DNA of 64,000 nucleotides from Naegleria gruberi (lineage: Eukaryota), in the NCBI GenBank assembly GCA_000004985.1, contig GG738903.1, one strand, 5' to 3'. Numbering within the stretch: position 1 is the first letter of the stretch; every line of letters starts with the position of its first letter. Below the pieces are notes generated by a model. The model did not search any database, had not been told where the DNA came from, and saw only the letters and a list, made by a program, of their open reading frames with translations. Positions 35,263 through 64,000 of this stretch are shown one piece after another. The position numbers and the translations under genes were made by a program.

Positions 35263-36840
35263 ATGAAATTCAAGAGGAATAAAACGTTAGACGAAACCGT
35301 TGTGTCTCCTTCCTCGTCAACACCAACCAATACATCATCTTCTTCTACATCCTCTTCAAAGAAAAGACCTAGCAGTGTGAATAGTGACTTTGATGTTTCG
35401 AATTATGCCATTGTTTTTGAAGAAATGATGGATTCGAAAGAAACTCGTGATTTATTCTATGAATATTTGCAGCTTAATCGTTCGGTGGAATCTCTCATGT
35501 TCATGAATCAAGTTGAAGAATATCGTGCGGAATATAACAAGAAATTCGAGAATGTTATTTGTGGTGAAAATGTTGATAAAAAGCAAGTTCATACCAAGAT
35601 TGTGGAAATCTATTCGAAAGCAAGGGGTATTCTTGATCAGTTTGTGTTTCAAGGAGGTCAATTCGAGTTGAATTTGGCCTTTGCTAACAAGGATAAGATT
35701 CGAGAACTTTGGGAAACAAAAGTTTGTGAAAGTTTTGAAAAATTGGACAAGGAAAGATTGGAGGTTGAGAAACTTTCGAAAATCATTTCCATGTTGGAAA
35801 CTGATACATTGTTTGGACTTGCAATGTTTAGTGTGAATTTGGATTTGAGGTTTGATCAATTTCCAAGATTTTCCAGATCTGAAATGTTAATGAAATTCCT
35901 CGAGTCGAAAGGAGAACGATTCACCAGAGCCATTGCAACAGATATTTCTAAAGGTTTCCAATTAGATATTCGATTCAAACCTCATCATTTACAAGATTCA
36001 ACCATTGATGACAAGTTTATTTACTTTGGTTTCACCCTCGCTGAGGACACACCTGATTGGGAATTGACCTATTCAGATAAGAAGAATACCTGTGAATTGT
36101 ACCAATCCAAAACTTCCTATGTATTCGATACTGAAACATTGAAAGGTTTGAGATTGAGTAAGGTTGTCACTCGTGTACCATATCCAATTGAAGAAGTCTG
36201 GGCATGCTTCTGGAATATAGATCTCCATAAGGTGATAGATCCTATGGGAGGTGCAGAAACTTTCAAATTAATGGATTACATTTCACCTGTATCTGAAGCT
36301 GAAGGAAAACCAAATTATTCGAATCAACAAGTTTCATGTTGTACGAAATTCCCAATTCCATTCATGAAGAAGAGAGATTTACCAATCACCATGACAGCAA
36401 TCAGAGATCCAGAACTTAACATGATCATGGTTGCAGGACACACTTGTTCACTAATCGAAACTAGAGAAGATTGCATCCCAGCTCAACTCATGTTTTACTA
36501 CATGTTCTATAAGGTCAGTGATAATGAAACTCGTTTCATTCACACTGTGTATACTGATTTGAAGTTGCCTCTAAATCCTTCCTTAATGCTCAAAGTAATC
36601 ATGTTGAAGAGAGCTAAGGATTATAAGAAAGGTTTCGAGCAACAAATTACTCGCCTTCGTAAGGAAAAAAGTACAAAGGATGGTCTGATGGATACTTCCC
36701 AATTTGTGGATGCTATGAAATATAATTTGGCCATTGAGGAGAATACTAAATTATATCCTAATAGATCGTGGTATAATGAATGGCTTCAGTTGAGAGAGAA
36801 ACGACTCAGCTTGAACATGTCAGATGCAAAATCAAATTAA
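35263..36840 (+). CDS. RGS-domain protein (N-terminal RGS, C-terminal domain unknown), 525 aa
   Basis: ATG at 35263. The RGS signature is 'FEEMMDSKETRDLFYEYLQLNRSVESLMFMNQVEEYR...IYSKARGILDQFVFQGGQFELNL' (compare ...F..FL..E.S.ENL.FW...E.YK....EVNLD). The S/T-rich N-terminus has no signal peptide. Confidence 0.6.
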   Translation: MKFKRNKTLDETVVSPSSSTPTNTSSSSTSSSKKRPSSVNSDFDVSNYAIVFEEMMDSKETRDLFYEYLQLNRSVESLMFMNQVEEYRAEYNKKFENVICGENVDKKQVHTKIVEIYSKARGILDQFVFQGGQFELNLAFANKDKIRELWETKVCESFEKLDKERLEVEKLSKIISMLETDTLFGLAMFSVNLDLRFDQFPRFSRSEMLMKFLESKGERFTRAIATDISKGFQLDIRFKPHHLQDSTIDDKFIYFGFTLAEDTPDWELTYSDKKNTCELYQSKTSYVFDTETLKGLRLSKVVTRVPYPIEEVWACFWNIDLHKVIDPMGGAETFKLMDYISPVSEAEGKPNYSNQQVSCCTKFPIPFMKKRDLPITMTAIRDPELNMIMVAGHTCSLIETREDCIPAQLMFYYMFYKVSDNETRFIHTVYTDLKLPLNPSLMLKVIMLKRAKDYKKGFEQQITRLRKEKSTKDGLMDTSQFVDAMKYNLAIEENTKLYPNRSWYNEWLQLREKRLSLNMSDAKSN

Positions 36841-45200: not shown

Positions 45201-46151
45201 TTACAACAAGCTCAAAGTGCTGCTGTTACATCACTTTCTTCATCAGCAGCTGAAAGTAGTATCTCCTTCTCAAGCTCTGTTGCTGGTTCAGTTTCAAAGG
45301 GTCTCTTTGCTGATTCAACAACTTCTCAAGTTATTTCAAGCTTGTCAAATACTACATCTTCTGTAACATCAAGTTCTTCTGTTAGTCTTTCTGATGATGC
45401 TATTGCAAGTACTTTGGCAACTGCTAATAATTTCCTTGCCTACATCAAGTCCAAATTATCAAAGAGATCTTTCAGTTCTGCTGATCTTACTAATTTGAAT
45501 GCTGTCTTTGCAAGTGTTGCTTCTATCAAGACTAAGAATGTTGTTCCTGATGCACCAGCTGCTACTGTAACTGCCAATGGTGTCACAACTTCTTCTCGTA
45601 AGGTCAATCTTGCTTCTTTGAATTCTATGGCTCAAAATACTACAGGAAAGGATCAAATCAAGTTCAAGAATAATATTGCCGCATTGACTGCCTTTGCTAA
45701 TGCCAAATCTGTTAGTGTTACAGTCAAGACAACTAGTACATCTGTTACTAATGCTGTCACCAATGCCATGACATTCTCATTTGCTGATGGAACTAGTTCT
45801 GCAACTATTTCAGTTTCTAGCTCTTCTCCAATTGCTGATTTGGTATTTGGTACAACCAAGAGTTTGACAAGATCAATCACTGCAACCCAAGTCATCTGTA
45901 AATCTGTCGATTCAAGTGGTGCTGCTTCAGATGCTTCAGGATGTACTGTTGTAATTGGAAGTGATGGTACTGCCACAGCAACTGTTTCAAGTACTGGTAC
46001 TTATTTGTTGACTCAACAAACAATTACTGCTACATCGAGTGGTAAAACTGTTACTCCTAAACCTTCAAAGCTCAGTAGTGCTCCAGCAAGTACTTTCTCA
46101 ATGATGTTGACTCTTTTCATTGCTGCTATTACATTGATTATTTTACAATAG
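39211..46151 (+). CDS. Giant cell-surface protein, over 2300 aa. It has a signal peptide, EGF-like cysteine repeats, two Frizzled-type CRD-like modules, a tandem NGT sequon array, an S/T-rich stalk and a GPI-anchor-like C-terminus. It spans a 50-N gap.
   Basis: ATG at 39211. Signal/anchor 'VTVCMLVTLVILSILASNTNA'. Repeats of the form CxCxxG(Y/F)xGxxC. Two CRD-like modules with '...CRLAYKRYACYSQFPICSANTYMPVCNGAC' and '...CLIHIKRYACYTTFKSCIN...PWCKSAC'. 'NGTNNGTINNNGTINNNGT...' lies at about 41098..41295. The frame that is open from the gap edge (43863) runs to 46151 and ends 'STFSMMLTLFIAAITLIILQ'. Continuity across the gap is assumed. Confidence 0.65.
43813..43862. other. Assembly gap (50 N) inside the giant surface-protein gene
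   Basis: A run of N characters. Confidence 1.
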
Positions 46152-46289
46152 ATAATAAACAATTTACAATTCTTCTAACTCATTACTATTACTCATCATA
46201 TTAAGTATTGGCTTTAATGACTCTAAATTTGTTAGAATTGGCATTATTAACACTTTACAAAATCAATCAATACGTCAAGTGTTAAAAAA

Positions 46290-48209
46290 ATGAAAACGCT
46301 TGTCAACAAGGTTCTCTCATCATCGATTATTACTGCTTCTCGAAGATCCTCATCATCATTATCATCTCTCAATAATGGTTCTATTCTTATTGGTGGATTG
46401 AATAATTCCGTACCACTGATCAATGTCTTTGGAAAACATCATCAATTAAACTTTTCAATAATGGAAAATGCAAATGGAAGAAATTATCATGCAACAAGTA
46501 AAATGTTGAAAAAGGCTAAACAACAAGCACCAGAGACAACAGTTTATTCCGAACAAGAACAGAATGAATTGATCAAAAATTATATAGAACTTGAGGACAA
46601 ATTTAAGAAATTAACTGAAAATATTATTGAATATCGTAGAAATCATCCTACTCCTGTTCAATTATTGGAAACTAATCACTTATTTGTTCAAGTTTGTGAT
46701 TTAGTTAATTTTTGTTACAAAACCTTTCCAAAAACTAATGATCCAGTTAATATGCAAGTTAGATACTTCAAATCAAATGTTGGTATGAAGTTATATGTCT
46801 TGATGAAGAAGGTTGAATTGTTAATGTTAAAGATTGTGAATCAGGAATGGTTCCCAGTTGAAACAATCAGAACTCAATTCAATGAGGAAAATATCATGCA
46901 ATCCCTTCCTACTGTTTATCATGTTGCTACACCTGTTGACGATACACTCTTCTTGTTTGCTGCTTATGAGGCAGCACTTTCTTATGCAGCTTTCATTCCA
47001 AACATGAGAGATATTGTGAGACCAACCACAAAAGAAAATCTAATTGCTGCAGCTTTATTCTTGTTTAATAGATTGAAGGATTTCCCAATTTTGAATGATG
47101 GTATTCGAAATTATGCAGATATGGTCTTTTCAGATTATGAAGCAGCCAAATTGGCCTACACTACTGCAAAGCCAATTGAAAATGAACCAGATTTCCATTA
47201 TAATGCTGATAAGAATGCTTATTCTTACTTGGGAAAGACATTTACAGAGCACGAGTTTGATTGGTTCGAAGATATTGAAACAAATATTCCAATTCATCTT
47301 GGAAACTTTATCAAAGCTTTGAAGGTTGCTGCTTATGATGGTGATAGAAAGCAAAGTATGGATGTTTTGGATGAATGTATCAAAACTGATCCAAATAATA
47401 TTTATATTCACTATTTGAAGGCATCTCGTTTGGACATTCTCACTGATTCAGAGCCAGACCTCAATATTGCTCACAATAATTACTCAAATGCCATTCATCA
47501 TTTGGAGATGGCATTGGCCTATCTTGCAAAAACTCCAAAGTTGCCACTCCCTACTCTTGCAAAGACCAATTTTTCACCTGACATTGAAGTACCAGAAAAA
47601 CAGGTTGAAAGAATTAACGATCTCAAATTCTCACCAATTAGTTTGATATTGGCCAGCATGTATGCAAGAGCTGCTGAATCTGGAGTTTCAATAGATTTGA
47701 GACACATTTATGGTGCAAAGGGGGTCGATTTTGTCAGACAAGCTGAATTATATTCGAGATCACCTAATGGACCATATTTTTATATGATTAAGGGAGCTTG
47801 CTATTATGATTGTGACATGTATGAATTGTCAATCAATGCCTATTCTTCTGTTGAAAGATTTGAAGCAGTTTTGGATCCAAGTTTTATTATTGACTCTCTT
47901 TGTTATGCTTCTCAGGGAATGATTGCTCTTGGATATGCTGATAAGTGTTTAGAAGTAATGGACTTTTATATTGAAAAATATAATGATGCAAGATTAGTTT
48001 GCCAAAAGATTCTCTGTAAAGATTACTTGTGTAGATCAAAGGATGAATTGAGACAGGTTTTGAAAGAATTCGAACAATTAAAGGAGAGCATTCAAGATTT
48101 GAAACTCACTGATCCATACGTTTTTTCAAAAGTTAACATGCATACCAATACAAGAATTAATGAAATTTTGATAGCTATCAACAATCCACAAGTTGCTGAA
48201 TGTTGGTAA
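46290..48209 (+). CDS. Hypothetical protein, 639 aa, with an S/R-rich N-terminus that may be an organellar presequence and helical-repeat character
   Basis: ATG at 46290 (aaaaaaATG). Uninterrupted ORF. N-terminal 'MKTLVNKVLSSSIITASRRSSSSLSSLNNGS'. No domain recognised by eye. Confidence 0.55.
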   Translation: MKTLVNKVLSSSIITASRRSSSSLSSLNNGSILIGGLNNSVPLINVFGKHHQLNFSIMENANGRNYHATSKMLKKAKQQAPETTVYSEQEQNELIKNYIELEDKFKKLTENIIEYRRNHPTPVQLLETNHLFVQVCDLVNFCYKTFPKTNDPVNMQVRYFKSNVGMKLYVLMKKVELLMLKIVNQEWFPVETIRTQFNEENIMQSLPTVYHVATPVDDTLFLFAAYEAALSYAAFIPNMRDIVRPTTKENLIAAALFLFNRLKDFPILNDGIRNYADMVFSDYEAAKLAYTTAKPIENEPDFHYNADKNAYSYLGKTFTEHEFDWFEDIETNIPIHLGNFIKALKVAAYDGDRKQSMDVLDECIKTDPNNIYIHYLKASRLDILTDSEPDLNIAHNNYSNAIHHLEMALAYLAKTPKLPLPTLAKTNFSPDIEVPEKQVERINDLKFSPISLILASMYARAAESGVSIDLRHIYGAKGVDFVRQAELYSRSPNGPYFYMIKGACYYDCDMYELSINAYSSVERFEAVLDPSFIIDSLCYASQGMIALGYADKCLEVMDFYIEKYNDARLVCQKILCKDYLCRSKDELRQVLKEFEQLKESIQDLKLTDPYVFSKVNMHTNTRINEILIAINNPQVAECW

Positions 48210-49986
48210 TTAAACTAAGAATCCATCTTCAGTGTTTGAGTGAACCTCGGATACCTCTTACTCCAATCTCTTATTGATTCAAGATTTTTCTTATTACACT
48301 TGATTGAAGTGGGAATTTCCAGACTTCTTTTTCAAGGTAGTTCAACTCCAGCTATTTTGATATGAGCTGATGAAATACCTTCTATCTCAATTAATTTGTC
48401 AGATATTGAAGTAATAAATTGTATAGAGAGAGAATATATCACTGGGAATCTATCTTTTTCTAATGAATGTTTCTCATCCCTTGTTCGTTGAATATAATAG
48501 TAAAGTATCACAAATATTAAAAGAAAAATATCCAATAGTGAAAATTACAGGAAAAGATAATTATCTGGTGGAGAATGGATGAATTACATACTATTCGTGA
48601 TGTTTCAGTGAGAAGTCAATATCTACTACCACATCATGAGAAAAACAATAAAAATACATTGTTAAAAACGAAATAAACCCGTTTTAAAAAATTATTCGGT
48701 AATATTCGGTAGCATTCTTCCATGCAAAAACAGAACTTGGAAAAATATTTCAAAAATATTGGAACAACATCAGGTACATCACGACTCTGTTGATTCTTGG
48801 AGTAATTTCACATCTATTAACTCCAAGAATTTCACCACATCATCTCATCATGATTTAAATAATAGTATTAATAGTAATTTTTGGAATTTAATTCTTCATC
48901 ATATGATTTGGAAATAATTTTATTATTTGGAAAAATTCAAGTTGGCACCAACCATCATCGGAACTACTACCAACCATCATCATTGTTATTTATCATCATT
49001 ATAATAGTAATATTTGCGGAAATAAATCTGATAATAGTAATATTTTAGTGAAATTTAATATTTTCACTAAAATCATCATCACTGCCCGATTTATATGATA
49101 ATTTGGAAAACTTTTAATCTAGTATTGTTCAGCATGGTCGATTCCATCAGGTAAAATCACTTCCGAACATTTCCCTATTGTTTATCATGATGATAGGTAC
49201 ATGTATATTTTCAACATGTACATGCCATATCTCAACATGTACTTCACCAACTTGGAAAATGTCTTTCATCACTACTATTCAAATACATAATAAACAATAT
49301 ATTTATTATCAGATTTTCATCATTTTGTGTTTTTGGCAACTTCGGGCTATTCATGGTCCCAATCATGATTCATGCCAAAAGTACAGTCAATCTTCTTGAA
49401 ACATTAATAAACTTTTATTAGTACTATTGTAGATGTACCATATCAATTATTTCGTCTTGTTTCGTTGAAATCATGAAGATTTTGATTTTTCTGTTTTTAA
49501 TTAAATTTCACAACACATACACCATATTTGTTGATGTAAACTAGACAAGTTACATGTAAATAATCCATTGTTGATTCTCTAATCATATTTTATTGTGTTT
49601 TTGTGTATCTAGGTTTTTGAAATCTTGCAAATTATTCTGCGGTTATTCTTCATATAAATATGATTCCTCACTTCATGATATGAGGAGGGATTGATATCAT
49701 GATTGTTTGAAAGTGTTGTACAAATTTTGGACACTCCCTGAATTGAAATCAGGAAGAAAGAGTCAAATCTTTAACACCATATAAAATATGACTTTTGACG
49801 ATGGTTTTGGTCTGCCTGGAACAAACACGAAAATATCAGATATCCATGATGCTTGACAAGACTCGAAATTATACATTCAATAACATAATAAACATATGAA
49901 TAGTTTTATTATTATTGTTTGATTTGTAATTGGGCTACTCTGGTAGCATGAAATATCGGAACTTGGTAAATTGACAACACGACGAA

Positions 49987-50375
49987 AATCTGATAAATAT
50001 GATGTTTATTATCTATTTAAATAGTAGTACTTAAAGACACGATTCAAGTTGGTGAAGTAACTTGACCAAAATTGATAAGAGAAAGTTCTCTTACCTACTA
50101 TTGACCATTCCGAACAATACTACATTGACAGTTTTCCAACTTGTTCAGTAGATCCAGCAGTGATGATGAATTTAGTGAAAATTTTGACATTTCACCAAAA
50201 TTACATTACTAAAAATTAATTTCCACAAATACTATTATTATTGATGGAAAACAATGATGATGGTGGTGAATGATCCGATGATGAAACACCAAATTGTGAT
50301 TTTCCATCATGAAAAATAAATTTCAAGACGATAATCCATGATGATGTGTAAAACCACTCAGAAAATCATCTCAAT
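49987..50375. repeat. Dispersed non-coding repeat, copy 2 (about 0.39 kb). It is the same family as 37876..38400.
   Basis: See copy 1. Identity is roughly 85-90% over the aligned blocks. It lacks the two insertions present in copy 1. Confidence 0.65.
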
Positions 50376-50863
50376 ATTCCTTTGATAATTTTTCAATCAC
50401 TCTTGAGGAGTGAATCAAAAAGGTTTGGTTTGGAAAATTACCTATCCCTATCAAGTTTAAAACCAACTTGAAAAATTATACTCCAAACATTAATTTCTAT
50501 TTCAGAGCCATTTTCTGCCAATACTTTGCATATCATCTCCACATCCTTCTCATAATCTTTTCAAAGTAGCATTTTAGAGTTTGGAATTGATTACATTGAA
50601 ATGCAGCATTGAGTATTTCCTCATCTAGTTTCATTTCATTTGATAGACACGTGAGAATTTATCCTGTTCGAAACTTAACAAACCTTGCATTCAAAAATCA
50701 ACCTCTGAAAATTGTTTTTTGGAATTGACATTCCAAATAGATCTATAACTTGAAGTTTGGCGTGTAATTGACCGCTACTTTATGTGAGATTCCTCTACGC
50801 GAACTATCGTCGATGATTCTAGCTCATTACCTTTCAATATGTCATTCGGTTAAATGAATAATA

Positions 50864-52022
50864 CGAGAAACCATGACATAAATTTTTCGATGGATTTTTT
50901 TTACCCATCGATGATTGATCGAGATGGAAAATGATCGATTGAATGGATGAAACATAGAATTTTATCAATTAATTGATCGATCAATCGATCGATCGATCAA
51001 TGTTTTCATCAGATATCTCGAAATCCTCATTGAACTGAGCTTGAGACTTTGATTTTGATGATTTCTTTTGTTCTTCCAGTTCAGGTTTGATTTTTTTCTT
51101 GCCTTTTTGACTTTTTGAGAGTTGTTTTTTGGTTTTTCAATTATTTTTTTAGAGTCACAGATTTCATTCTCCCTTACTTATTTCACTAAGCTTCGAAATG
51201 GCTTCTCCAAATTGCTCCTTTTTTCATTTTAAATCAACCCTTGGTTAGATGTCAGTACAGAGTGCCTTGAAAATCACCTTATTGGTATTACTGAATTCCA
51301 TATCAAGCTGGGATGGCATCGGAACGATTCATTAAGTTTGAATGTTTTAATTTCTTTACAATGTGGATCTTCTACTACATCAAATGAGTTTCTCAAGTAC
51401 TTGACATGATAAAATACAACACTTGAAAAAAGGTTTCCAGTATTGAGTGCCTTAATTAATGACAAAGGGTGAGAATGAAAGCAAACTTGATAAAATGGTC
51501 TTTGAACAAAACCACATGTTCAGGAGCAACAACGTCCAAACTTGTGTAAGCAATCATTTAATCAAGAACCAACACTCTTATGTAATATTGCAATATCCAC
51601 ATCCCAAATTAAAATCAAGAGTGAGCACTTGACATATTCGTGGAAAAAGGTTGGGAGCAACCTTCTGTCACTGAGCTCAGAAAGGATTATAAGAAATTTA
51701 TATTCAAATGCCACATCGGAGGAGATTGGCTTCTAACATGATTTTAAGCACTTAGAAAACCAACTTTTTGTGTTTTAAGTTCTTTATTTTGAAACATCAT
51801 AAGAAATCAAACAACATCTTTTGATAATTAGCTGAAGGTTGAGCCTTTTCAAATAACATCAAGTCTTTATTCAATATGATTGAAATTGTTGATAAATCAT
51901 GATCGATTGTTTGATAGATTGATCAAAAAACAGATTGAATAGATGGATTTTAATCGATCAACATGGATGAGATGGAAAAAAGATTGGTGTTGAGGTGAAA
52001 AAATTTATGTCATGGTTTCTGG
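50864..52022. mobile_element. Candidate non-autonomous DNA transposon / MITE-like element of about 1.16 kb with roughly 23-bp terminal inverted repeats and subterminal GATC/ATCGAT-rich repeats
   Basis: Left end 50866..50887 'agaaaccatgacataaattttt' is the exact reverse complement of 51999..52020 'aaaaatttatgtcatggtttct'. The next flanking base also matches. Both subterminal regions carry 'gatcgatt', 'gattgaat(g/a)gatgg' and 'atcgat' motifs. An (ATCG)n tract lies at 50980..51000. It contains only small ORFs (63-64 aa). Its right end is 26 bp upstream of the ATG at 52048. Confidence 0.4.
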
Positions 52023-52047
52023 AAAACTACAATAGTCAGACAAAAAA

Positions 52048-54099
52048 ATGGCTAAATTTCACATTTGTTTGTTCACACTAATGTTGCTGTTACTAATTTC
52101 TTGTTCAACAGTGGCTGGAATTTCGTCTGGGCTTTTGTCAAAGGTGAAGGATGGTGATTGTGTGGTTGGGGTGAGAACGTTTCTGATAATGTTTGTGTGG
52201 AAACATAAATTTTCAAACGAAACTTTGACGAAACTGATTACTGCTAAAGATAATGATTCCAGAAGAAAGTATTTGGTCGAAAATTTGCAGGAGAGAGGTT
52301 TAACTATCGGTACCATACGCGACTATACTCCTTTTCTTTCAAATTATTTCAAATATTCTAATCTTTCGCTTTCTCATGGCCTTTCGAATAGCATACTATC
52401 ATCTAGCTATTTTTCCATTTACCCACAAGTTGACATGTGTCAAAGAAGAGATTATTTTACGAGATATGATGCCTTTTTGTTAGATCCCTATGACTTTGCT
52501 TATTACGTCAGGTTTTACAGAGATCTTGGGATGACATCTGGCATGTTCATGAATAGTGATGACTTTGTAGCTGTACCACTCATTCCCTTCGAAGTCTACA
52601 CTCAAACTACAAGAAATCAAGTTTCCTCCTTATTTGATTTGAATGTTGCAAGCTGTGATGCAAAACCTGATATTTCTGATGCGCAGTTTTTGAGAAGGTT
52701 GACAGGTTATGCTAATTTTTCACAGCAAGATGTTGAAATAATTGGTAATGTTACTGGTAAATCACAAATTTATGGAAATTGGACACTTGTGAATAACTTT
52801 CTAAATATGGAGATGACAGAACTTACCATAAATGAAACATGGCAAGAATTACTACCTTCCACATGCTACATGTGTTCAACAGATGGTTGTTATGGTGAAA
52901 ATTTCAGGCCTGATCTTGATCTTTTCTTCATTCCACAGTTAGTAATTATAGTAATTTACTTTTTATTACTTTTTGGGTTGAAAATTTACAAAAAACCTTC
53001 AATGAAACGAAGAATTGGAATTCCCTATACTCCGATTCTTATCTTGGTTGTCATGATTACCTTTGCCGGAGTTTCTAGAACTTGTGTTGGCGTTTGGTAT
53101 AGTGCATGTTTGTTTTGTTTGTTTTGGTGGATATTGATCTATATCAGTACAATTATTCGATTCTACTATTTGCGTAATTTGTATGCTCTCATAGTGATGT
53201 TTCCAAATAGAGAAAAGATGTTGAAAATGTTAGCTTCTCAGAAAGTTGGAATACTCATGACAGTTATGTTGACTTTTGTCATTTCACAAATATTGAATCT
53301 AGTGAGTGTTTACTTTTTTGTAAATGAAGATAAGGCTGCCACTGATTTTTATAGACCCATTATTGGTATCATTATTTTATTATCGTTGTGGGTCTTTGGT
53401 GGTTGTTGCTTTTTATTAGATTTGTTTCTTCAGAGAAAAACTATTCGACAGGGTGGTATTCGAAAGTTTTTCTTCTTTGATGATCCATTCTACTTGAGAA
53501 TAGACTTGATTTCTACCATATTACCTGTCATTATTGCGATACTTACAGGAATTGAGGCAACCTCAAATGAAGTTGTTGATGGTCTTGCAGGAGTTTCCAA
53601 TACTTTACTTTGTTTTAGTTTCGTTCAGATTAGTGGGGGAAATGTGCTAATGATTGAGATTTTCAAAAGGGTAAAAAGAAGAAAGGAATCTTCGCAATTG
53701 ACATGGGATCAAGAATTAACAAATACAGATTTACTCCAAATTTTAAAGGAGTATTGCGAAAAGGAGTTTAGTTCAGAGAATTACGAATTTTATATTAAGT
53801 TGAAATCACTCCAGAATAGAAAGTTTATCAAGTTGAAGGAACTGCAAAAAATTGAAGCTGAATTTATTCGAAACTATTCAAAATACGAAGTGAATATTCC
53901 ATCTTCATGCAAAAAGACTTTTTATGAACTTTTAAACAAATGCCAAGAAGAAACTCAATTAGAATTTCAATTAATTTGGGATTGTGTTGCTCCAGAATTA
54001 TTACTCAACCTTCAAGATACCTTCAGTCGATTACAAGATACCTCAATATATGCCAAATGGCTTTCAGTCCAATCTTTGAAAGAAAATAATAATGTTTAG
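52048..54099 (+). CDS. 7TM receptor with a C-terminal RGS domain, 683 aa. It has a signal peptide and an ectodomain of about 270 aa.
   Basis: ATG at 52048 (aaaaaaATG). Signal 'MAKFHICLFTLMLLLLISCSTVAG'. Seven hydrophobic helices between about aa 290 and 520. C-terminal RGS 'LLQILKEYCEKEFSSENYEFYIKLKSLQN...YSKYEVNIPSSCKKTFYELL'. Confidence 0.75.
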   Translation: MAKFHICLFTLMLLLLISCSTVAGISSGLLSKVKDGDCVVGVRTFLIMFVWKHKFSNETLTKLITAKDNDSRRKYLVENLQERGLTIGTIRDYTPFLSNYFKYSNLSLSHGLSNSILSSSYFSIYPQVDMCQRRDYFTRYDAFLLDPYDFAYYVRFYRDLGMTSGMFMNSDDFVAVPLIPFEVYTQTTRNQVSSLFDLNVASCDAKPDISDAQFLRRLTGYANFSQQDVEIIGNVTGKSQIYGNWTLVNNFLNMEMTELTINETWQELLPSTCYMCSTDGCYGENFRPDLDLFFIPQLVIIVIYFLLLFGLKIYKKPSMKRRIGIPYTPILILVVMITFAGVSRTCVGVWYSACLFCLFWWILIYISTIIRFYYLRNLYALIVMFPNREKMLKMLASQKVGILMTVMLTFVISQILNLVSVYFFVNEDKAATDFYRPIIGIIILLSLWVFGGCCFLLDLFLQRKTIRQGGIRKFFFFDDPFYLRIDLISTILPVIIAILTGIEATSNEVVDGLAGVSNTLLCFSFVQISGGNVLMIEIFKRVKRRKESSQLTWDQELTNTDLLQILKEYCEKEFSSENYEFYIKLKSLQNRKFIKLKELQKIEAEFIRNYSKYEVNIPSSCKKTFYELLNKCQEETQLEFQLIWDCVAPELLLNLQDTFSRLQDTSIYAKWLSVQSLKENNNV

Positions 54100-54244
54100 A
54101 ACCTTACAACTCTATTGTCATAATAAATATGATAATATTTCAATGTAGGTTCTTGGGTTTTCGGACAAATCGATTCAACACTACAAAGAAAGACCAGTAA
54201 GAAAGCTGCTCTATTTTGGCGTATAATTTTTAAAATTACTTTTC

Positions 54245-57200
54245 NNNNNNNNNNNNNNNNNNNNNNNNNNNNNNNNNNNNNNNNNNNNNNNNNNNNNNNN
54301 NNNNNNNNNNNNNNNNNNNNNNNNNNNNNNNNNNNNNNNNNNNNNNNNNNNNNNNNNNNNNNNNNNNNNNNNNNNNNNNNNNNNNNNNNNNNNNNNNNNN
54401 NNNNNNNNNNNNNNNNNNNNNNNNNNNNNNNNNNNNNNNNNNNNNNNNNNNNNNNNNNNNNNNNNNNNNNNNNNNNNNNNNNNNNNNNNNNNNNNNNNNN
54501 NNNNNNNNNNNNNNNNNNNNNNNNNNNNNNNNNNNNNNNNNNNNNNNNNNNNNNNNNNNNNNNNNNNNNNNNNNNNNNNNNNNNNNNNNNNNNNNNNNNN
54601 NNNNNNNNNNNNNNNNNNNNNNNNNNNNNNNNNNNNNNNNNNNNNNNNNNNNNNNNNNNNNNNNNNNNNNNNNNNNNNNNNNNNNNNNNNNNNNNNNNNN
54701 NNNNNNNNNNNNNNNNNNNNNNNNNNNNNNNNNNNNNNNNNNNNNNNNNNNNNNNNNNNNNNNNNNNNNNNNNNNNNNNNNNNNNNNNNNNNNNNNNNNN
54801 NNNNNNNNNNNNNNNNNNNNNNNNNNNNNNNNNNNNNNNNNNNNNNNNNNNNNNNNNNNNNNNNNNNNNNNNNNNNNNNNNNNNNNNNNNNNNNNNNNNN
54901 NNNNNNNNNNNNNNNNNNNNNNNNNNNNNNNNNNNNNNNNNNNNNNNNNNNNNNNNNNNNNNNNNNNNNNNNNNNNNNNNNNNNNNNNNNNNNNNNNNNN
55001 NNNNNNNNNNNNNNNNNNNNNNNNNNNNNNNNNNNNNNNNNNNNNNNNNNNNNNNNNNNNNNNNNNNNNNNNNNNNNNNNNNNNNNNNNNNNNNNNNNNN
55101 NNNNNNNNNNNNNNNNNNNNNNNNNNNNNNNNNNNNNNNNNNNNNNNNNNNNNNNNNNNNNNNNNNNNNNNNNNNNNNNNNNNNNNNNNNNNNNNNNNNN
55201 NNNNNNNNNNNNNNNNNNNNNNNNNNNNNNNNNNNNNNNNNNNNNNNNNNNNNNNNNNNNNNNNNNNNNNNNNNNNNNNNNNNNNNNNNNNNNNNNNNNN
55301 NNNNNNNNNNNNNNNNNNNNNNNNNNNNNNNNNNNNNNNNNNNNNNNNNNNNNNNNNNNNNNNNNNNNNNNNNNNNNNNNNNNNNNNNNNNNNNNNNNNN
55401 NNNNNNNNNNNNNNNNNNNNNNNNNNNNNNNNNNNNNNNNNNNNNNNNNNNNNNNNNNNNNNNNNNNNNNNNNNNNNNNNNNNNNNNNNNNNNNNNNNNN
55501 NNNNNNNNNNNNNNNNNNNNNNNNNNNNNNNNNNNNNNNNNNNNNNNNNNNNNNNNNNNNNNNNNNNNNNNNNNNNNNNNNNNNNNNNNNNNNNNNNNNN
55601 NNNNNNNNNNNNNNNNNNNNNNNNNNNNNNNNNNNNNNNNNNNNNNNNNNNNNNNNNNNNNNNNNNNNNNNNNNNNNNNNNNNNNNNNNNNNNNNNNNNN
55701 NNNNNNNNNNNNNNNNNNNNNNNNNNNNNNNNNNNNNNNNNNNNNNNNNNNNNNNNNNNNNNNNNNNNNNNNNNNNNNNNNNNNNNNNNNNNNNNNNNNN
55801 NNNNNNNNNNNNNNNNNNNNNNNNNNNNNNNNNNNNNNNNNNNNNNNNNNNNNNNNNNNNNNNNNNNNNNNNNNNNNNNNNNNNNNNNNNNNNNNNNNNN
55901 NNNNNNNNNNNNNNNNNNNNNNNNNNNNNNNNNNNNNNNNNNNNNNNNNNNNNNNNNNNNNNNNNNNNNNNNNNNNNNNNNNNNNNNNNNNNNNNNNNNN
56001 NNNNNNNNNNNNNNNNNNNNNNNNNNNNNNNNNNNNNNNNNNNNNNNNNNNNNNNNNNNNNNNNNNNNNNNNNNNNNNNNNNNNNNNNNNNNNNNNNNNN
56101 NNNNNNNNNNNNNNNNNNNNNNNNNNNNNNNNNNNNNNNNNNNNNNNNNNNNNNNNNNNNNNNNNNNNNNNNNNNNNNNNNNNNNNNNNNNNNNNNNNNN
56201 NNNNNNNNNNNNNNNNNNNNNNNNNNNNNNNNNNNNNNNNNNNNNNNNNNNNNNNNNNNNNNNNNNNNNNNNNNNNNNNNNNNNNNNNNNNNNNNNNNNN
56301 NNNNNNNNNNNNNNNNNNNNNNNNNNNNNNNNNNNNNNNNNNNNNNNNNNNNNNNNNNNNNNNNNNNNNNNNNNNNNNNNNNNNNNNNNNNNNNNNNNNN
56401 NNNNNNNNNNNNNNNNNNNNNNNNNNNNNNNNNNNNNNNNNNNNNNNNNNNNNNNNNNNNNNNNNNNNNNNNNNNNNNNNNNNNNNNNNNNNNNNNNNNN
56501 NNNNNNNNNNNNNNNNNNNNNNNNNNNNNNNNNNNNNNNNNNNNNNNNNNNNNNNNNNNNNNNNNNNNNNNNNNNNNNNNNNNNNNNNNNNNNNNNNNNN
56601 NNNNNNNNNNNNNNNNNNNNNNNNNNNNNNNNNNNNNNNNNNNNNNNNNNNNNNNNNNNNNNNNNNNNNNNNNNNNNNNNNNNNNNNNNNNNNNNNNNNN
56701 NNNNNNNNNNNNNNNNNNNNNNNNNNNNNNNNNNNNNNNNNNNNNNNNNNNNNNNNNNNNNNNNNNNNNNNNNNNNNNNNNNNNNNNNNNNNNNNNNNNN
56801 NNNNNNNNNNNNNNNNNNNNNNNNNNNNNNNNNNNNNNNNNNNNNNNNNNNNNNNNNNNNNNNNNNNNNNNNNNNNNNNNNNNNNNNNNNNNNNNNNNNN
56901 NNNNNNNNNNNNNNNNNNNNNNNNNNNNNNNNNNNNNNNNNNNNNNNNNNNNNNNNNNNNNNNNNNNNNNNNNNNNNNNNNNNNNNNNNNNNNNNNNNNN
57001 NNNNNNNNNNNNNNNNNNNNNNNNNNNNNNNNNNNNNNNNNNNNNNNNNNNNNNNNNNNNNNNNNNNNNNNNNNNNNNNNNNNNNNNNNNNNNNNNNNNN
57101 NNNNNNNNNNNNNNNNNNNNNNNNNNNNNNNNNNNNNNNNNNNNNNNNNNNNNNNNNNNNNNNNNNNNNNNNNNNNNNNNNNNNNNNNNNNNNNNNNNNN

Positions 57201-58238
57201 NNNNNNNNNNNNNNNNNNNNNNNNNNNNNNNNNNNNNNNNNNNNNNNNNNNNNNNNNNNNNNNNNNNNNNNNNNNNNNNNNNNNNNNNNNNNNNNNNNNN
57301 NNNNNNNNNNNNNNNNNNNNNNNNNNNNNNNNNNNNNNNNNNNNNNNNNNNNNNNNNNNNNNNNNNNNNNNNNNNNNNNNNNNNNNNNNNNNNNNNNNNN
57401 NNNNNNNNNNNNNNNNNNNNNNNNNNNNNNNNNNNNNNNNNNNNNNNNNNNNNNNNNNNNNNNNNNNNNNNNNNNNNNNNNNNNNNNNNNNNNNNNNNNN
57501 NNNNNNNNNNNNNNNNNNNNNNNNNNNNNNNNNNNNNNNNNNNNNNNNNNNNNNNNNNNNNNNNNNNNNNNNNNNNNNNNNNNNNNNNNNNNNNNNNNNN
57601 NNNNNNNNNNNNNNNNNNNNNNNNNNNNNNNNNNNNNNNNNNNNNNNNNNNNNNNNNNNNNNNNNNNNNNNNNNNNNNNNNNNNNNNNNNNNNNNNNNNN
57701 NNNNNNNNNNNNNNNNNNNNNNNNNNNNNNNNNNNNNNNNNNNNNNNNNNNNNNNNNNNNNNNNNNNNNNNNNNNNNNNNNNNNNNNNNNNNNNNNNNNN
57801 NNNNNNNNNNNNNNNNNNNNNNNNNNNNNNNNNNNNNNNNNNNNNNNNNNNNNNNNNNNNNNNNNNNNNNNNNNNNNNNNNNNNNNNNNNNNNNNNNNNN
57901 NNNNNNNNNNNNNNNNNNNNNNNNNNNNNNNNNNNNNNNNNNNNNNNNNNNNNNNNNNNNNNNNNNNNNNNNNNNNNNNNNNNNNNNNNNNNNNNNNNNN
58001 NNNNNNNNNNNNNNNNNNNNNNNNNNNNNNNNNNNNNNNNNNNNNNNNNNNNNNNNNNNNNNNNNNNNNNNNNNNNNNNNNNNNNNNNNNNNNNNNNNNN
58101 NNNNNNNNNNNNNNNNNNNNNNNNNNNNNNNNNNNNNNNNNNNNNNNNNNNNNNNNNNNNNNNNNNNNNNNNNNNNNNNNNNNNNNNNNNNNNNNNNNNN
58201 NNNNNNNNNNNNNNNNNNNNNNNNNNNNNNNNNNNNNN
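54245..58238. other. Assembly gap (3994 N)
   Basis: A run of N characters. The ORFs reported across it are artefacts. Confidence 1.
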
Positions 58239-58747
58239 ATTAGTAAGGTCCTGTATCAATTTCATGAGGATCTGTATTGTGGATGTAATTGTCACATCCC
58301 TGTAGGTGTCAAGTAGATCAGCCATGTACCATGTATGATATGGATGATCTTCAAAATCATATAGATATATTTAATTATCATGTATAGATGTATTAGAAGT
58401 GAATTGAAGTGGTATAGATTTCTATCTTCAATGTTAGAACAGGTTAGTTGACAAGTTGAATATTAAATATCCTGAAATGATACCAAAGTATATGAAATTG
58501 ATATATATTGTTATTAACATTATTTATAAGATGATATATTGATTTGAAATGATTTAGAAATGTTTTCATTGATATTCTAATTGTCTAATCTATTATATGA
58601 AATTAACTTATATAAGTCATTATAATGATGTAATATTATGTTATAATATGATTATATATTCAATTTGGAGTAAATTGATATATAATATATTGATTTATAA
58701 TGAGTATTTATTGAGATAATGAATTAAGATGAATAAAAGTCAAAATG

Positions 58748-59083
58748 TTGGGTCTGGCCTTAGTCGTGGGTTTGGGTTTGGTTAGGTTGGGTTTGGGTGT
58801 TGGTTGGGGTTTGGGTGTTGGTTGGGGTTGGGTTTGGGTTTGGGTTTGGGTTTGGGTTTGGGTTTGGGTTTGGGTTTGGGTTTGGGTTTGGGTTTGGGTT
58901 TGGGTTTGGGTTTGGGTTTGGGTTTGGGTTTGGGTTTGGGTTTGGGTTTGGGTTTGGGTTTGGGTTTGGGTTTGGGTTTGGGTTTGGGTTTGGGTTTGGG
59001 TTTGGGTTTGGGTTTGGGTTTGGGTTTGGGTTTGGGTTTGGGTTTGGGTTTGGGTTTGGGTTTGGGTTTGGGTTTGGGTTTGG
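58748..59083 (+). repeat. Telomere-type (GGGTTT)n array, with the G-rich strand on the plus strand. Its proximal edge is degenerate and it runs into a gap.
   Basis: It begins with degenerate units 'gggtctggccttagtcgtgggtttgggtttggttaggttgggtttgggtgttggttgggg', then about 45 perfect GGGTTT units up to the N run. Confidence 0.85.
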
Positions 59084-62000
59084 NNNNNNNNNNNNNNNNN
59101 NNNNNNNNNNNNNNNNNNNNNNNNNNNNNNNNNNNNNNNNNNNNNNNNNNNNNNNNNNNNNNNNNNNNNNNNNNNNNNNNNNNNNNNNNNNNNNNNNNNN
59201 NNNNNNNNNNNNNNNNNNNNNNNNNNNNNNNNNNNNNNNNNNNNNNNNNNNNNNNNNNNNNNNNNNNNNNNNNNNNNNNNNNNNNNNNNNNNNNNNNNNN
59301 NNNNNNNNNNNNNNNNNNNNNNNNNNNNNNNNNNNNNNNNNNNNNNNNNNNNNNNNNNNNNNNNNNNNNNNNNNNNNNNNNNNNNNNNNNNNNNNNNNNN
59401 NNNNNNNNNNNNNNNNNNNNNNNNNNNNNNNNNNNNNNNNNNNNNNNNNNNNNNNNNNNNNNNNNNNNNNNNNNNNNNNNNNNNNNNNNNNNNNNNNNNN
59501 NNNNNNNNNNNNNNNNNNNNNNNNNNNNNNNNNNNNNNNNNNNNNNNNNNNNNNNNNNNNNNNNNNNNNNNNNNNNNNNNNNNNNNNNNNNNNNNNNNNN
59601 NNNNNNNNNNNNNNNNNNNNNNNNNNNNNNNNNNNNNNNNNNNNNNNNNNNNNNNNNNNNNNNNNNNNNNNNNNNNNNNNNNNNNNNNNNNNNNNNNNNN
59701 NNNNNNNNNNNNNNNNNNNNNNNNNNNNNNNNNNNNNNNNNNNNNNNNNNNNNNNNNNNNNNNNNNNNNNNNNNNNNNNNNNNNNNNNNNNNNNNNNNNN
59801 NNNNNNNNNNNNNNNNNNNNNNNNNNNNNNNNNNNNNNNNNNNNNNNNNNNNNNNNNNNNNNNNNNNNNNNNNNNNNNNNNNNNNNNNNNNNNNNNNNNN
59901 NNNNNNNNNNNNNNNNNNNNNNNNNNNNNNNNNNNNNNNNNNNNNNNNNNNNNNNNNNNNNNNNNNNNNNNNNNNNNNNNNNNNNNNNNNNNNNNNNNNN
60001 NNNNNNNNNNNNNNNNNNNNNNNNNNNNNNNNNNNNNNNNNNNNNNNNNNNNNNNNNNNNNNNNNNNNNNNNNNNNNNNNNNNNNNNNNNNNNNNNNNNN
60101 NNNNNNNNNNNNNNNNNNNNNNNNNNNNNNNNNNNNNNNNNNNNNNNNNNNNNNNNNNNNNNNNNNNNNNNNNNNNNNNNNNNNNNNNNNNNNNNNNNNN
60201 NNNNNNNNNNNNNNNNNNNNNNNNNNNNNNNNNNNNNNNNNNNNNNNNNNNNNNNNNNNNNNNNNNNNNNNNNNNNNNNNNNNNNNNNNNNNNNNNNNNN
60301 NNNNNNNNNNNNNNNNNNNNNNNNNNNNNNNNNNNNNNNNNNNNNNNNNNNNNNNNNNNNNNNNNNNNNNNNNNNNNNNNNNNNNNNNNNNNNNNNNNNN
60401 NNNNNNNNNNNNNNNNNNNNNNNNNNNNNNNNNNNNNNNNNNNNNNNNNNNNNNNNNNNNNNNNNNNNNNNNNNNNNNNNNNNNNNNNNNNNNNNNNNNN
60501 NNNNNNNNNNNNNNNNNNNNNNNNNNNNNNNNNNNNNNNNNNNNNNNNNNNNNNNNNNNNNNNNNNNNNNNNNNNNNNNNNNNNNNNNNNNNNNNNNNNN
60601 NNNNNNNNNNNNNNNNNNNNNNNNNNNNNNNNNNNNNNNNNNNNNNNNNNNNNNNNNNNNNNNNNNNNNNNNNNNNNNNNNNNNNNNNNNNNNNNNNNNN
60701 NNNNNNNNNNNNNNNNNNNNNNNNNNNNNNNNNNNNNNNNNNNNNNNNNNNNNNNNNNNNNNNNNNNNNNNNNNNNNNNNNNNNNNNNNNNNNNNNNNNN
60801 NNNNNNNNNNNNNNNNNNNNNNNNNNNNNNNNNNNNNNNNNNNNNNNNNNNNNNNNNNNNNNNNNNNNNNNNNNNNNNNNNNNNNNNNNNNNNNNNNNNN
60901 NNNNNNNNNNNNNNNNNNNNNNNNNNNNNNNNNNNNNNNNNNNNNNNNNNNNNNNNNNNNNNNNNNNNNNNNNNNNNNNNNNNNNNNNNNNNNNNNNNNN
61001 NNNNNNNNNNNNNNNNNNNNNNNNNNNNNNNNNNNNNNNNNNNNNNNNNNNNNNNNNNNNNNNNNNNNNNNNNNNNNNNNNNNNNNNNNNNNNNNNNNNN
61101 NNNNNNNNNNNNNNNNNNNNNNNNNNNNNNNNNNNNNNNNNNNNNNNNNNNNNNNNNNNNNNNNNNNNNNNNNNNNNNNNNNNNNNNNNNNNNNNNNNNN
61201 NNNNNNNNNNNNNNNNNNNNNNNNNNNNNNNNNNNNNNNNNNNNNNNNNNNNNNNNNNNNNNNNNNNNNNNNNNNNNNNNNNNNNNNNNNNNNNNNNNNN
61301 NNNNNNNNNNNNNNNNNNNNNNNNNNNNNNNNNNNNNNNNNNNNNNNNNNNNNNNNNNNNNNNNNNNNNNNNNNNNNNNNNNNNNNNNNNNNNNNNNNNN
61401 NNNNNNNNNNNNNNNNNNNNNNNNNNNNNNNNNNNNNNNNNNNNNNNNNNNNNNNNNNNNNNNNNNNNNNNNNNNNNNNNNNNNNNNNNNNNNNNNNNNN
61501 NNNNNNNNNNNNNNNNNNNNNNNNNNNNNNNNNNNNNNNNNNNNNNNNNNNNNNNNNNNNNNNNNNNNNNNNNNNNNNNNNNNNNNNNNNNNNNNNNNNN
61601 NNNNNNNNNNNNNNNNNNNNNNNNNNNNNNNNNNNNNNNNNNNNNNNNNNNNNNNNNNNNNNNNNNNNNNNNNNNNNNNNNNNNNNNNNNNNNNNNNNNN
61701 NNNNNNNNNNNNNNNNNNNNNNNNNNNNNNNNNNNNNNNNNNNNNNNNNNNNNNNNNNNNNNNNNNNNNNNNNNNNNNNNNNNNNNNNNNNNNNNNNNNN
61801 NNNNNNNNNNNNNNNNNNNNNNNNNNNNNNNNNNNNNNNNNNNNNNNNNNNNNNNNNNNNNNNNNNNNNNNNNNNNNNNNNNNNNNNNNNNNNNNNNNNN
61901 NNNNNNNNNNNNNNNNNNNNNNNNNNNNNNNNNNNNNNNNNNNNNNNNNNNNNNNNNNNNNNNNNNNNNNNNNNNNNNNNNNNNNNNNNNNNNNNNNNNN

Positions 62001-62871
62001 NNNNNNNNNNNNNNNNNNNNNNNNNNNNNNNNNNNNNNNNNNNNNNNNNNNNNNNNNNNNNNNNNNNNNNNNNNNNNNNNNNNNNNNNNNNNNNNNNNNN
62101 NNNNNNNNNNNNNNNNNNNNNNNNNNNNNNNNNNNNNNNNNNNNNNNNNNNNNNNNNNNNNNNNNNNNNNNNNNNNNNNNNNNNNNNNNNNNNNNNNNNN
62201 NNNNNNNNNNNNNNNNNNNNNNNNNNNNNNNNNNNNNNNNNNNNNNNNNNNNNNNNNNNNNNNNNNNNNNNNNNNNNNNNNNNNNNNNNNNNNNNNNNNN
62301 NNNNNNNNNNNNNNNNNNNNNNNNNNNNNNNNNNNNNNNNNNNNNNNNNNNNNNNNNNNNNNNNNNNNNNNNNNNNNNNNNNNNNNNNNNNNNNNNNNNN
62401 NNNNNNNNNNNNNNNNNNNNNNNNNNNNNNNNNNNNNNNNNNNNNNNNNNNNNNNNNNNNNNNNNNNNNNNNNNNNNNNNNNNNNNNNNNNNNNNNNNNN
62501 NNNNNNNNNNNNNNNNNNNNNNNNNNNNNNNNNNNNNNNNNNNNNNNNNNNNNNNNNNNNNNNNNNNNNNNNNNNNNNNNNNNNNNNNNNNNNNNNNNNN
62601 NNNNNNNNNNNNNNNNNNNNNNNNNNNNNNNNNNNNNNNNNNNNNNNNNNNNNNNNNNNNNNNNNNNNNNNNNNNNNNNNNNNNNNNNNNNNNNNNNNNN
62701 NNNNNNNNNNNNNNNNNNNNNNNNNNNNNNNNNNNNNNNNNNNNNNNNNNNNNNNNNNNNNNNNNNNNNNNNNNNNNNNNNNNNNNNNNNNNNNNNNNNN
62801 NNNNNNNNNNNNNNNNNNNNNNNNNNNNNNNNNNNNNNNNNNNNNNNNNNNNNNNNNNNNNNNNNNNNNNN
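59084..62871. other. Assembly gap (3788 N)
   Basis: A run of N characters. Confidence 1.
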
Positions 62872-63524
62872 GTATATATGGTTGGTTATGTATTTGATAG
62901 AGTTGGTCTGACTTGTCTTTCTCTAAAGTCAACCAAAAAATATCAACATATACCTTCCCATGATACCATTTCTGATTATTAGGACATGAAATTGAATTCT
63001 ATATCATTATAGATCATGTACATCATTTTGGTAAAGTTTCAATAGGTGGTCCTTTTTCAAGATTTCATCCTTTTCATCATAGTAGACCATGTGTGATTGA
63101 GGGAAGAAATCTTTAAATATGAAAGTTAAAATAAATTTGATATTCGATGTTTACTCATCAAATGGAACATTTTCATATTAGGATTCAATATGTTTTGATG
63201 AGAAACTCAAAAGTTATAGTTGACCTCTTTTACCTCACAACTTCCCTTTTCACTTCATACTCTTGTGTCTACAAACTTGAACTTTTGAAATTAGATATGA
63301 GAGTGATTATGAATGTTGTTAATGATGATATTGACTATATAATCTCATTAAAGGATTTTGAAATTAACTTTCTTCCTATGGTATCATTTTACAAATTTTA
63401 ATCTGACATTATTTACAAAGTTAATATTTTATAAATTGAAAAACTAAATATACTACGTTGTTCTACTCATCATTTACAATCGAATGATATAAAATTTTAT
63501 GATATTTGAATAAGTTTATAATTT

Positions 63525-64000
63525 TGGGCTAGGGTTTGAAGGTTGGGTTTAGAAGAATTCTATTTTTAGTTCTGGGTTTGGGTTTGGGTTTGGGTTTGGG
63601 TTGGGTTTGGGTTTGGGTTTGGGTTTGGGTTTGGGTTTGGGTTTGGGTTTGGGTTTGGGTTTGGGTTTGGGTTTGGGTTTGGGTTTGGGTTTGGGTTTGG
63701 GTTTGGGTTTGGGTTTGGGTTTGGGTTTGGGTTTGGGTTTGGGTTTGGGTTTGGGTTGGGTTTGGGTTTGGGTTTGGGTTTGGGTTTGGGTTTGGGTTTG
63801 GGTTTGGTTTTGGTTTTGGGTTTGGGTTTGGGTTTGGGTTTGGGTTTGGGTTTGGGTTTGGGTTTGGGTTTGGGTTTGGGTTTGGGTTTGGGTTTGGGTT
63901 TGGGTTTGGGTTCCGGTTTGGGTTTGGGTTTGGGTTTGGGTTTGGGTTCTGGGTTTGGGTTTGGGTTTGGGTTTGGGTTTGGGTTTGGGTTTGGGTTTGG
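63525..64000 (+). repeat. Telomere-type (GGGTTT)n array reaching the window end, with the G-rich strand on the plus strand. It has a degenerate proximal edge and occasional variant units.
   Basis: 'ttttgggctagggtttgaaggttgggtttag...ctgggtttgggttt' then more than 70 GGGTTT units. Sporadic variants occur: GGGTT, GGTTTT, GGGTTCC and GGGTTCT. Confidence 0.85.

Follow-up and report, generated by a model that had tools for sequence, protein, structure and literature searches.

Paramecium macronuclear telomeres consist of mixed TTGGGG and TTTGGG units with alternative telomere-addition sites, and the alternative ends of one Paramecium chromosome can yield several telomere-bearing contigs per scaffold. 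Telomere-type repeats also occur away from the ends, with non-telomeric sequence on both sides, as in the TG1-3 tracts of the yeast X/Y' elements and the (TTAGGG)n islands of human subtelomeres. Telomere-bearing mini-contigs beside gaps are, in addition, a familiar result of mate-pair scaffolding in Sanger-era assemblies. For Naegleria gruberi, TTTGGG, which is terminal in the assembly, has been put forward as the candidate telomere repeat, with experimental confirmation still required (Fulneckova et al. 2013, Genome Biol Evol, PMC3622300); the main text of this survey does not give the anatomy of the junctions. Nanopore reads of N. gruberi have been generated for a study of 6mA (PMC12695648). 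No Naegleria telomere description beyond the 2013 survey was found in a literature search that did not cover the 2010 genome paper.

We took a closer look at one scaffold end of the same assembly, a window of 64,000 nt that is part of a 304,373-bp scaffold record of N. gruberi. Six ORF products in the window are identical to N. gruberi EFC39031, EFC39034, EFC38968, EFC38969, EFC38971 and EFC38972, which belong to one 304,373-bp record, and exact-product look-ups for the window genes returned no record. TAA, TAG and TGA all behave as stops in the window ORFs, and low-complexity runs are present in the window proteins. Two same-strand (GGGTTT)n arrays described in the initial annotation, at 58767–59083 and 63573–64000 with the inner one running into N, were confirmed. 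They agree with the 2013 candidate in organism, 6-nt unit, location at scaffold or contig ends and outward direction of the G-rich strand, and the suggestion that the unit could help to name the organism proved right, TTTGGG being the published N. gruberi candidate (PMC3622300). The unit is also common to Paramecium telomeres, but the window contains only one GGGGTT and one GGGGTTT, both in the transition zone of the inner array, and it is not from a ciliate. A Paramecium-type macronuclear chromosome with alternative telomere-addition sites was rejected: TAA and TAG act as stops, being clustered at the ends of ORFs, TGA is unused in frame, and the proteins match N. gruberi entries exactly. On the same grounds we rejected a dictyostelid origin, which the low-complexity runs had suggested.

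Both arrays are tandem repeats of a short G/T-rich unit (53.5 and 71.5 GGGTTT copies), have the G-rich strand running 5' to 3' endward and lie at the right end of their own contigs. A window search with three units at up to 2 mismatches gave 107 matches, all on the + strand and all within the two arrays, and none was obtained in 100 dinucleotide-preserving shuffles. GGGTTTGGGTTT and AAACCCAAACCC did not occur in 1–58700. The telomere-type orientation proposed earlier is thus upheld by all 107 matches, and GGGTTT is not, within this window, a common microsatellite. Judged from their sequence, both (GGGTTT)n tracts are true arrays of telomere type from the amoeba N. gruberi. That they are ordinary microsatellites, or artefacts of the library or of chimeric clones, and play no part in telomeres would fit the candidate status that the 2013 survey gives to TTTGGG, yet this reading is very improbable in view of the strict strand polarity, the location at contig and scaffold ends, the lack of any copy in the 58.7-kb interior and the independent finding, in that survey, that TTTGGG is the convincing terminal candidate across the assembly (PMC3622300).

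The right-hand edge of the window is probably the scaffold end, since the edge cuts into a 428-bp array at position 64000 and the last + strand gene carries the highest + strand accession. Three N runs were mapped, at 43813–43862 (50 N), 54245–58238 (3994 N) and 59084–62871 (3788 N); the initial annotation had left them unweighed. The 3994-N gap parts the 10.4-kb contig 43863–54244 from the inner telomere contig, and the 3788-N gap lies between the two telomere-bearing mini-contigs. The arrays are thereby confined to isolated mini-contigs of 845 bp (58239–59083) and 1129 bp (62872–64000), each about one or two Sanger reads long, with the array as its right end and about 3.8–4.0 kb of N directly to its left. 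Not one sequenced base joins the inner array to the outer array or to the scaffold body. The gap lengths are estimates; the 50-N gap measures 108 bp in a 99%-identical contig of a relative (L001). Most of the 4.8 kb earlier given as the distance from one array to the other is estimated gap rather than sequence.

The inner array was delimited by Tandem Repeats Finder at 58767–59083 (period 6, 53.5 copies, 94% matches). A unit-by-unit parse placed a degenerate telomere-like transition on the + strand at 58747–58829, made up of GGGTCT, GGCCTTA, GGTTA, GGTT, GGGT/GTT, GGGGTTT and GGGGTT units and containing the 18-nt TTTGGGTGTTGGTTGGGG twice. It is followed at 58830–59083, also on the + strand, by 42 perfect GGGTTT units without any variant (58830–59081) and a final GG at the contig edge, which directly adjoins N. 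The parse thus found this array to be cleaner than the outer one (42/42 versus 65/73 perfect units). Its run of 42 consecutive perfect units shows no interstitial-type decay, so the array looks like a maintained terminal telomere, unlike an old internal tract; if internal, it is compatible only with a very young tract. The non-repeat part of the inner mini-contig (58239–58746; characterized by composition, ORF and relative searches) has a GC content of 0.23, dropping to 0.15 close to the array junction, and contains a minus-strand ORF with its ATG at 58325 (MADLLDTYRDV...) that extends into the 3994-N gap. No relatives of this flank were found in our searches: a 29-mer from it had no match in prokaryotic genomes and viral contigs, and a pooled chimeric query combining its ORF fragments with those of the outer mini-contig and the ORF tail closing contig 2 gave no match at E<=10.

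In blastn, 58239–58766 and 62872–63572 gave no significant alignment, and neither flank showed significant similarity to the rest of the window. The two mini-contigs were therefore rejected as diverged alleles of one end; if they are homologue-specific ends, their difference would be one of structure rather than of point divergence. We favour, at roughly even odds with everything else considered, the reading that two separate chromosome-end contigs were set in series by mate pairs, and the apparent "double telomere" is probably a scaffolding product rather than a demonstrated chromosome feature. Both arrays would then be genuine telomere junctions, with TTTGGG repeats presumably made by telomerase and the G-rich strand outward, the outer array (63574–64000) forming the end of the scaffold and the inner array (58830–59083) the end of a separate 845-bp contig, which a Sanger-era scaffolder may have put inside the scaffold via clone mate-pair links and estimated gaps. 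Most likely, each of the two contigs stands for a different chromosome end. They could be structurally different versions of this arm, either on the homologues or as subclonal terminal variants in a heterozygous diploid, or one could be an end from elsewhere that was drawn in via non-unique telomere-repeat reads; in either case no single DNA molecule would carry two arrays 4.8 kb apart. Naegleria is described as heterozygous and diploid, with aneuploidy and with karyotypes that vary from strain to strain (PMC9928731). False serial placement induced by haplotypes or repeats in heterozygous mate-pair scaffolds resembles the present case in its tiny contigs, N gaps, unrelated sequence and heterozygous diploid source, and is a candidate parallel. 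We infer that the mate-pair links did not come from single clones spanning the unique flanks of both mini-contigs. Against serial placement, the specific estimate of 3788 could stem from clones with one end in each mini-contig, and such bridging clones would prove one molecule. Two forms of one arm also predict the inner flank within the longer form, where the gaps would hide it.

The outer array was delimited by Tandem Repeats Finder at 63573–64000 (period 6, 71.5 copies, 97% matches), and the unit parse gave 73 units on the + strand at 63574–64000, reaching the window end and presumably the scaffold end. Perfect units number 65 of the 73 (63574–63998); the variants (GGGTT x2, GGTTTT x2, GGGTTCC, GGTTT and GGGTTCT) are commoner toward the 3' end. 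On the same strand, the parse found at 63526–63573 the telomere-like motifs TTTGGGCTAGGGTTTGAAGGTTGGGTTTA (GGGCTA GGGTTT GAA GGTT GGGTTTA, 63526–63551) followed by a 22-nt spacer (63552–63573) that is not telomere-like.

The preceding non-coding element of the outer mini-contig (62872–63525) was defined by comparison with the metagenome contig VFQN01031297.1 (L002), which comes from a close relative and whose reverse complement 774–1432 matches it with 92–94% identity over about 610–660 bp. In L002 the first ~300 bp of the element recur once more, at 69% identity, and to the left of the homologous region lies a degenerate tandem structure of ~308 bp, of which these first ~300 bp are a member. 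With such related copies the element qualifies as a repeated subtelomeric element, the copies found outside the window being all on this one contig, from a relative and not from NEG-M. The description of 62872–63524 as unique must therefore be revised, as it belongs to the ~308-bp degenerate repeat family and has a non-terminal setting in L002. An 84-aa ORF in the element (63147–63401) remains open in L002, and no protein relatives of it were found in our searches; it was rejected as a subtelomeric gene because 15 of the 18 codons differing from L002 are nonsynonymous.

The first 18 nt of the motif stretch are the same in L002, where TTTGGGCTAGGGTTTGAA is conserved base for base without a long array. 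Part of the outer degenerate transition is thus the conserved subtelomeric element itself; by this comparison TTTGGGCTAGGGTTTGAA belongs to that element and did not arise by in-place decay at the outer end. The sharpening of degenerate into perfect units, which the initial annotation regarded as marking a genuine junction at each array, is not supported as such a mark at the outer one. L002 further contains a degenerate tract of ~100 bp with three GGGTTT and three GGTTTGG motifs, all of them on a single strand, followed by more than 1.1 kb of non-telomeric sequence. Its architecture, in which an element leads to a degenerate tract and then to further sequence, is like that of the internal tracts of yeast and human subtelomeres, and indicates that internal telomere tracts at the boundaries of subtelomeric modules occur in this lineage.

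The same order of element, decayed telomere-like tract and further sequence is a point against serial placement and is consistent with the inner array being a real, young interstitial telomeric sequence on one molecule with both arrays, a reading that we regard as possible, though doubtful. A former end, consisting of the inner flank and its telomere, would have been extended by telomere capture, break-induced replication or end-joining, gaining ~4–5 kb of extra subtelomeric DNA that ends in the outer element and a new telomere. The shared orientation of both arrays on one scaffold and the non-rounded gap estimates agree with this, L002 shows, at the homologous boundary, such an architecture in decayed form, and the ~308-bp degenerate repeats to the left of the homologous element in L002 could explain why the 3788-N gap was not assembled. 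However, the distal side of the inner array is this gap, with zero sequenced bases, whereas the yeast and human tracts, among which the array would belong, have non-telomeric sequence on both sides. The expected distal junction, of GGGTTT repeats and then unique sequence, starts no contig in the scaffold; the 42 perfect units are without decay, and typical internal tracts are much shorter and less clean than this array; and mini-contigs with telomeres beside gaps are familiar from mate-pair scaffolding. Only tentatively, then, could the inner array be a very young internal telomere in which an end already bearing perfect TTTGGG repeats over at least 300 bp received a block of ~4–5 kb that ends in a conserved repeat-family element and a new telomere, with L002 as a decayed remnant of such a structure.

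At the point where the long outer array begins, L002 has just GGTTTGGGTTTGGTTAA and then ordinary sequence, and GGTTTGGGTTTGG is seen there at the position homologous to the outer junction. This fits an ancestral internal seed and raises the alternative, unlikely in our judgement, that one or both ends are healed breaks, where GGTTTGGGTTTGG or a similar telomere-like seed inside the chromosome was lengthened by telomerase, truncated chromosome forms coexisting in the culture or on the two homologues. The structural difference between this arm and the 99%-identical relative beyond ~48343 is in line with it. De novo addition, however, usually produces an abrupt junction, and the inner junction has ~80 bp of degenerate units including the duplicated 18-mer, as would suit a junction of some age. 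The change could also have run in either direction, as L002 could be ancestral or a decayed former telomere, and the copy in L002 may be paralogous rather than orthologous to the outer element.

In the proximal subtelomeric context (48344–54244; ORF survey, clustering and alignment to L001), 3.7 kb contain no ORF longer than 73 aa. An RGS-domain gene lies at 52048–54096, and a paralogue that falls into one 90%-identity cluster with it is located elsewhere on the scaffold; short JGI/IMG members of this cluster were rejected as relatives, being unrelated peptides of 43–48 aa. For a REJ-domain protein, the homologue search listed only a 34%-identical paralogue, with the query's own annotated protein and close relatives missing from the listing. 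L001 lacks 46267–47597 and parts from the window at about 48343, passing into a gene found on another NEG-M scaffold, the 312,004-bp one that carries EFC39328; these two differences suggest that the chromosome arm is structurally variable, which would favour serial placement of two end contigs.

The interpretation in the initial annotation is thus partly supported. It offered three readings and chose none; of these, the scaffolding artefact joining two ends is the one we favour, at about an even chance, and the subtelomeric block capped twice is a rival that we hold to be possible but doubtful. The finding is ordinary and in large part not new. Our analysis adds junction-level detail to a telomere type so far proposed only in silico, and identifies one conserved, repeated subtelomeric element with embedded telomere-like motifs. 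It also calls for caution, as the apparent internal telomere in a public N. gruberi scaffold is backed by zero sequenced bases and ought to be counted neither among interstitial telomeric sequences nor among chromosome-fusion scars. Subtelomere growth is a process already known in yeast and human subtelomeres. If the inner array is real, it would provide specialists with a clean heterolobosean case of recent subtelomere growth, and Naegleria chromosome ends would grow by repeated addition of modules onto existing telomeres.

Two period-6 GGGTTT arrays, both on the + strand, were found in 58000-64000 by Tandem Repeats Finder, an inner array at 58767-59083 (53.5 copies, 94% matches) and an outer array at 63573-64000 (71.5 copies, 97% matches). 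Searching with three units and up to 2 mismatches gave 107 sites, all on the + strand and all within the two arrays, versus zero in 100 dinucleotide-preserving shuffles, confirming the two same-orientation arrays of the initial annotation as real and far above chance. Neither the dimer GGGTTTGGGTTT nor its complement was present in the remaining 58.7 kb of the window. When parsed unit by unit, the first 80 bp or so of the inner array (58747-58829) consist of degenerate units, among which the 18-mer TTTGGGTGTTGGTTGGGG is duplicated; the array continues with 42 perfect units and passes directly into an N run from 59084. In front of the outer array, 65 of whose 73 units are perfect, stand the telomere-like motifs TTTGGGCTAGGGTTTGAAGGTTGGGTTTA and an unrelated 22-nt spacer; the variant units of this array are commoner nearer the 3' end, which fits either real heterogeneity or falling read quality. 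Both arrays are interpreted as genuine telomere-junction sequences.

For N. gruberi, a search of the present assembly named TTTGGG as the candidate telomeric repeat, an unexpected result, with the remarks that terminal position still needs experimental proof and that internal repeat blocks are also present in many assemblies (Fulneckova et al. 2013, PMC3622300). Repeat type and terminal location in the N. gruberi assembly are already published; no further descriptions of Naegleria telomeres were found in the literature searched. Naegleria has been described as diploid and heterozygous, with aneuploidy and with karyotypes that differ between strains (PMC9928731).

By exact-sequence look-up, six ORF products were identical to the N. 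gruberi GenBank proteins EFC39031, EFC39034, EFC38968, EFC38969, EFC38971 and EFC38972, all from one 304,373-bp record, which places the window in a scaffold of the JGI Sanger assembly. We infer, rather than take from the record, that the window is probably the terminal 64 kb of this scaffold, since a window edge inside a 428-bp array is unlikely by chance and the last + strand gene has the highest + strand accession seen. In the long ORFs, TAA and TAG are concentrated at the ends and TGA does not occur in frame, indicating the standard code; this code and the protein identities ruled out a ciliate origin, which had been suspected from the TTTGGG unit. Three RGS-domain genes (23380-31509, 35263-36837 and 52048-54096) lie in these 64 kb. 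The first (- strand) encodes 2710 aa in one ORF, where dozens of EGF/teneurin-type EGF repeats, visible in the DNA as 207/414-bp periodic repeats at 28504-30117, are combined with an RGS domain at the C-terminus. Such a joining of cysteine-rich extracellular repeats to a G-protein regulator is unusual. The 256-aa EFC38969 (37022-37789, +) falls in a 90%-identity cluster with EFC35916 of a 14,937-bp scaffold; either this scaffold may represent an alternative haplotype or the gene may have been duplicated recently.

Runs of N interrupt the window at three places, 43813-43862 (50 N), 54245-58238 (gap 1, 3994 N) and 59084-62871 (gap 2, 3788 N). The last two isolate the mini-contigs c3 (58239-59083, 845 bp) and c4 (62872-64000, 1129 bp), each about 1-2 Sanger reads in length and carrying the inner and outer array, respectively, at its right-hand end. 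Zero sequenced bases connect c3 with c4, or either with the scaffold body. The scaffold's gap estimates are rough: L001 (ENA ERZ929261 k127_245752), a metagenome contig with 99% identity to the window, has 108 bp in place of the 50-N gap. Both arrays are present but their proposed spacing of about 4.8 kb is mostly gap estimate, and the initial annotation, while correct that the inner array runs into a gap, underrated the weight of isolated mini-contigs with N runs. Its first reading, a scaffolding artefact joining two ends, is the one we favour, at about even confidence: c3 and c4 would be two different ends strung in series via mate pairs. This is favoured because base-level continuity is absent, no contig contains the inner array's distal junction, the units of that array are perfectly homogeneous, the genome is that of a heterozygous organism, and mini-contigs beside gaps are typical of Sanger-era mate-pair assemblies. 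They may represent this one arm in homologue-specific or subclonal forms, or c3 may be an end that was brought in via non-unique repeat reads.

Neither the non-repeat part of c3 (58239-58746, GC 0.23) nor that of c4 (62872-63525, GC 0.26) is significantly similar to the other or to any remaining part of the window, and diverged alleles were rejected on this ground. One combined query with all their ORF fragments gave no protein relatives at E<=10. A 32-mer of c4 matched one JGI metagenome contig, L002 (VFQN01031297.1, 2627 bp), the reverse complement of which is 92-94% identical to 62872-63526. An 84-aa ORF of c4 is open in this relative too, but was treated as non-coding because 15 of the 18 differing codons are nonsynonymous. 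The homology extends through the motif TTTGGGCTAGGGTTTGAA, identical in both, and more weakly as far as ...ATTTTAGGTTCAAAGGTTTGGGTTTGGTTAA. At the position of c4's long array, only about 2.5 units are present in L002, and over 1.1 kb of sequence that is non-telomeric and poor in ORFs follows; within about 100 bp L002 has 3 GGGTTT and 3 GGTTTGG on one strand and 0 on the other, GGGTTT totalling 3 in the 54-kb body of the window. Directly proximal to the c4-type junction, L002 (reverse complement, 295-1085) carries degenerate tandem repeats of about 308 bp whose copies are 66% identical. Roughly the first 300 bp of c4 belong to this repeat, which may be the content of gap 2. The segment 62872-63524, previously called unique, is therefore not so, and the c4 flank is a member of a repeated subtelomeric element. 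Degenerate units sharpening into perfect ones were taken earlier as a junction signature at both arrays, but the outer transition is partly a conserved element, not in-place decay. The inner array might instead be a real, young internal array, formed when a capped end gained another block that terminates in the c4 element. A decayed version of such architecture is seen in L002 and the scaffolder's gap estimate is specific, and we give this explanation perhaps a third of our confidence. Below it we rank a break healed at an internal telomere-like seed, which is unlikely, and a non-telomeric artefact, which is very improbable.

Proximal to the arrays, L001 is 99% identical to 43717-46266, lacks 46267-47597 (1331 bp of a 639-aa gene), is 96% identical to 47598-48340 and diverges completely from about 48343 (46267-48343 compared with L001 2599-3334). 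Its next gene belongs to a cluster of at least 90% identity with EFC39328, on another scaffold (312,004 bp) of N. gruberi NEG-M. The divergence could reflect rearrangement, paralogy or assembly chimera. In gene-dense surroundings, 48344-52040 (3.7 kb) has no ORF above 73 aa and GC down to 0.27, and is possibly decayed subtelomeric DNA. The last gene, encoding the RGS-domain protein EFC38972 (52048-54096), falls into one 90%-identity cluster together with EFC38959, a paralogue of 686 aa on the same scaffold. These features fit a structurally fluid chromosome end; L001 may be chimeric, or it may be orthologous to a paralogous copy. Spanning the 50-N gap (43813-43862), 39211-46148 (+) has EGF repeats upstream and a REJ (polycystin-type) domain downstream and looks like one large gene. 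A - strand open-frame tail of 49 codons (54096-54244) ends at 54096, where it overlaps the convergent RGS gene's stop, and an ATG-initiated frame in c3 (58239-58325, -) runs leftward into gap 1. The two could be the ends of one gene that bridges gap 1; no relatives of either were found.

The observation of two arrays is correct and concerns a feature already known in a public genome assembly, and their tandem placement rests on scaffolding, not sequence. Judging from the L002 comparison, internal telomere-like tracts, short and decayed, do occur at a module boundary in this lineage.
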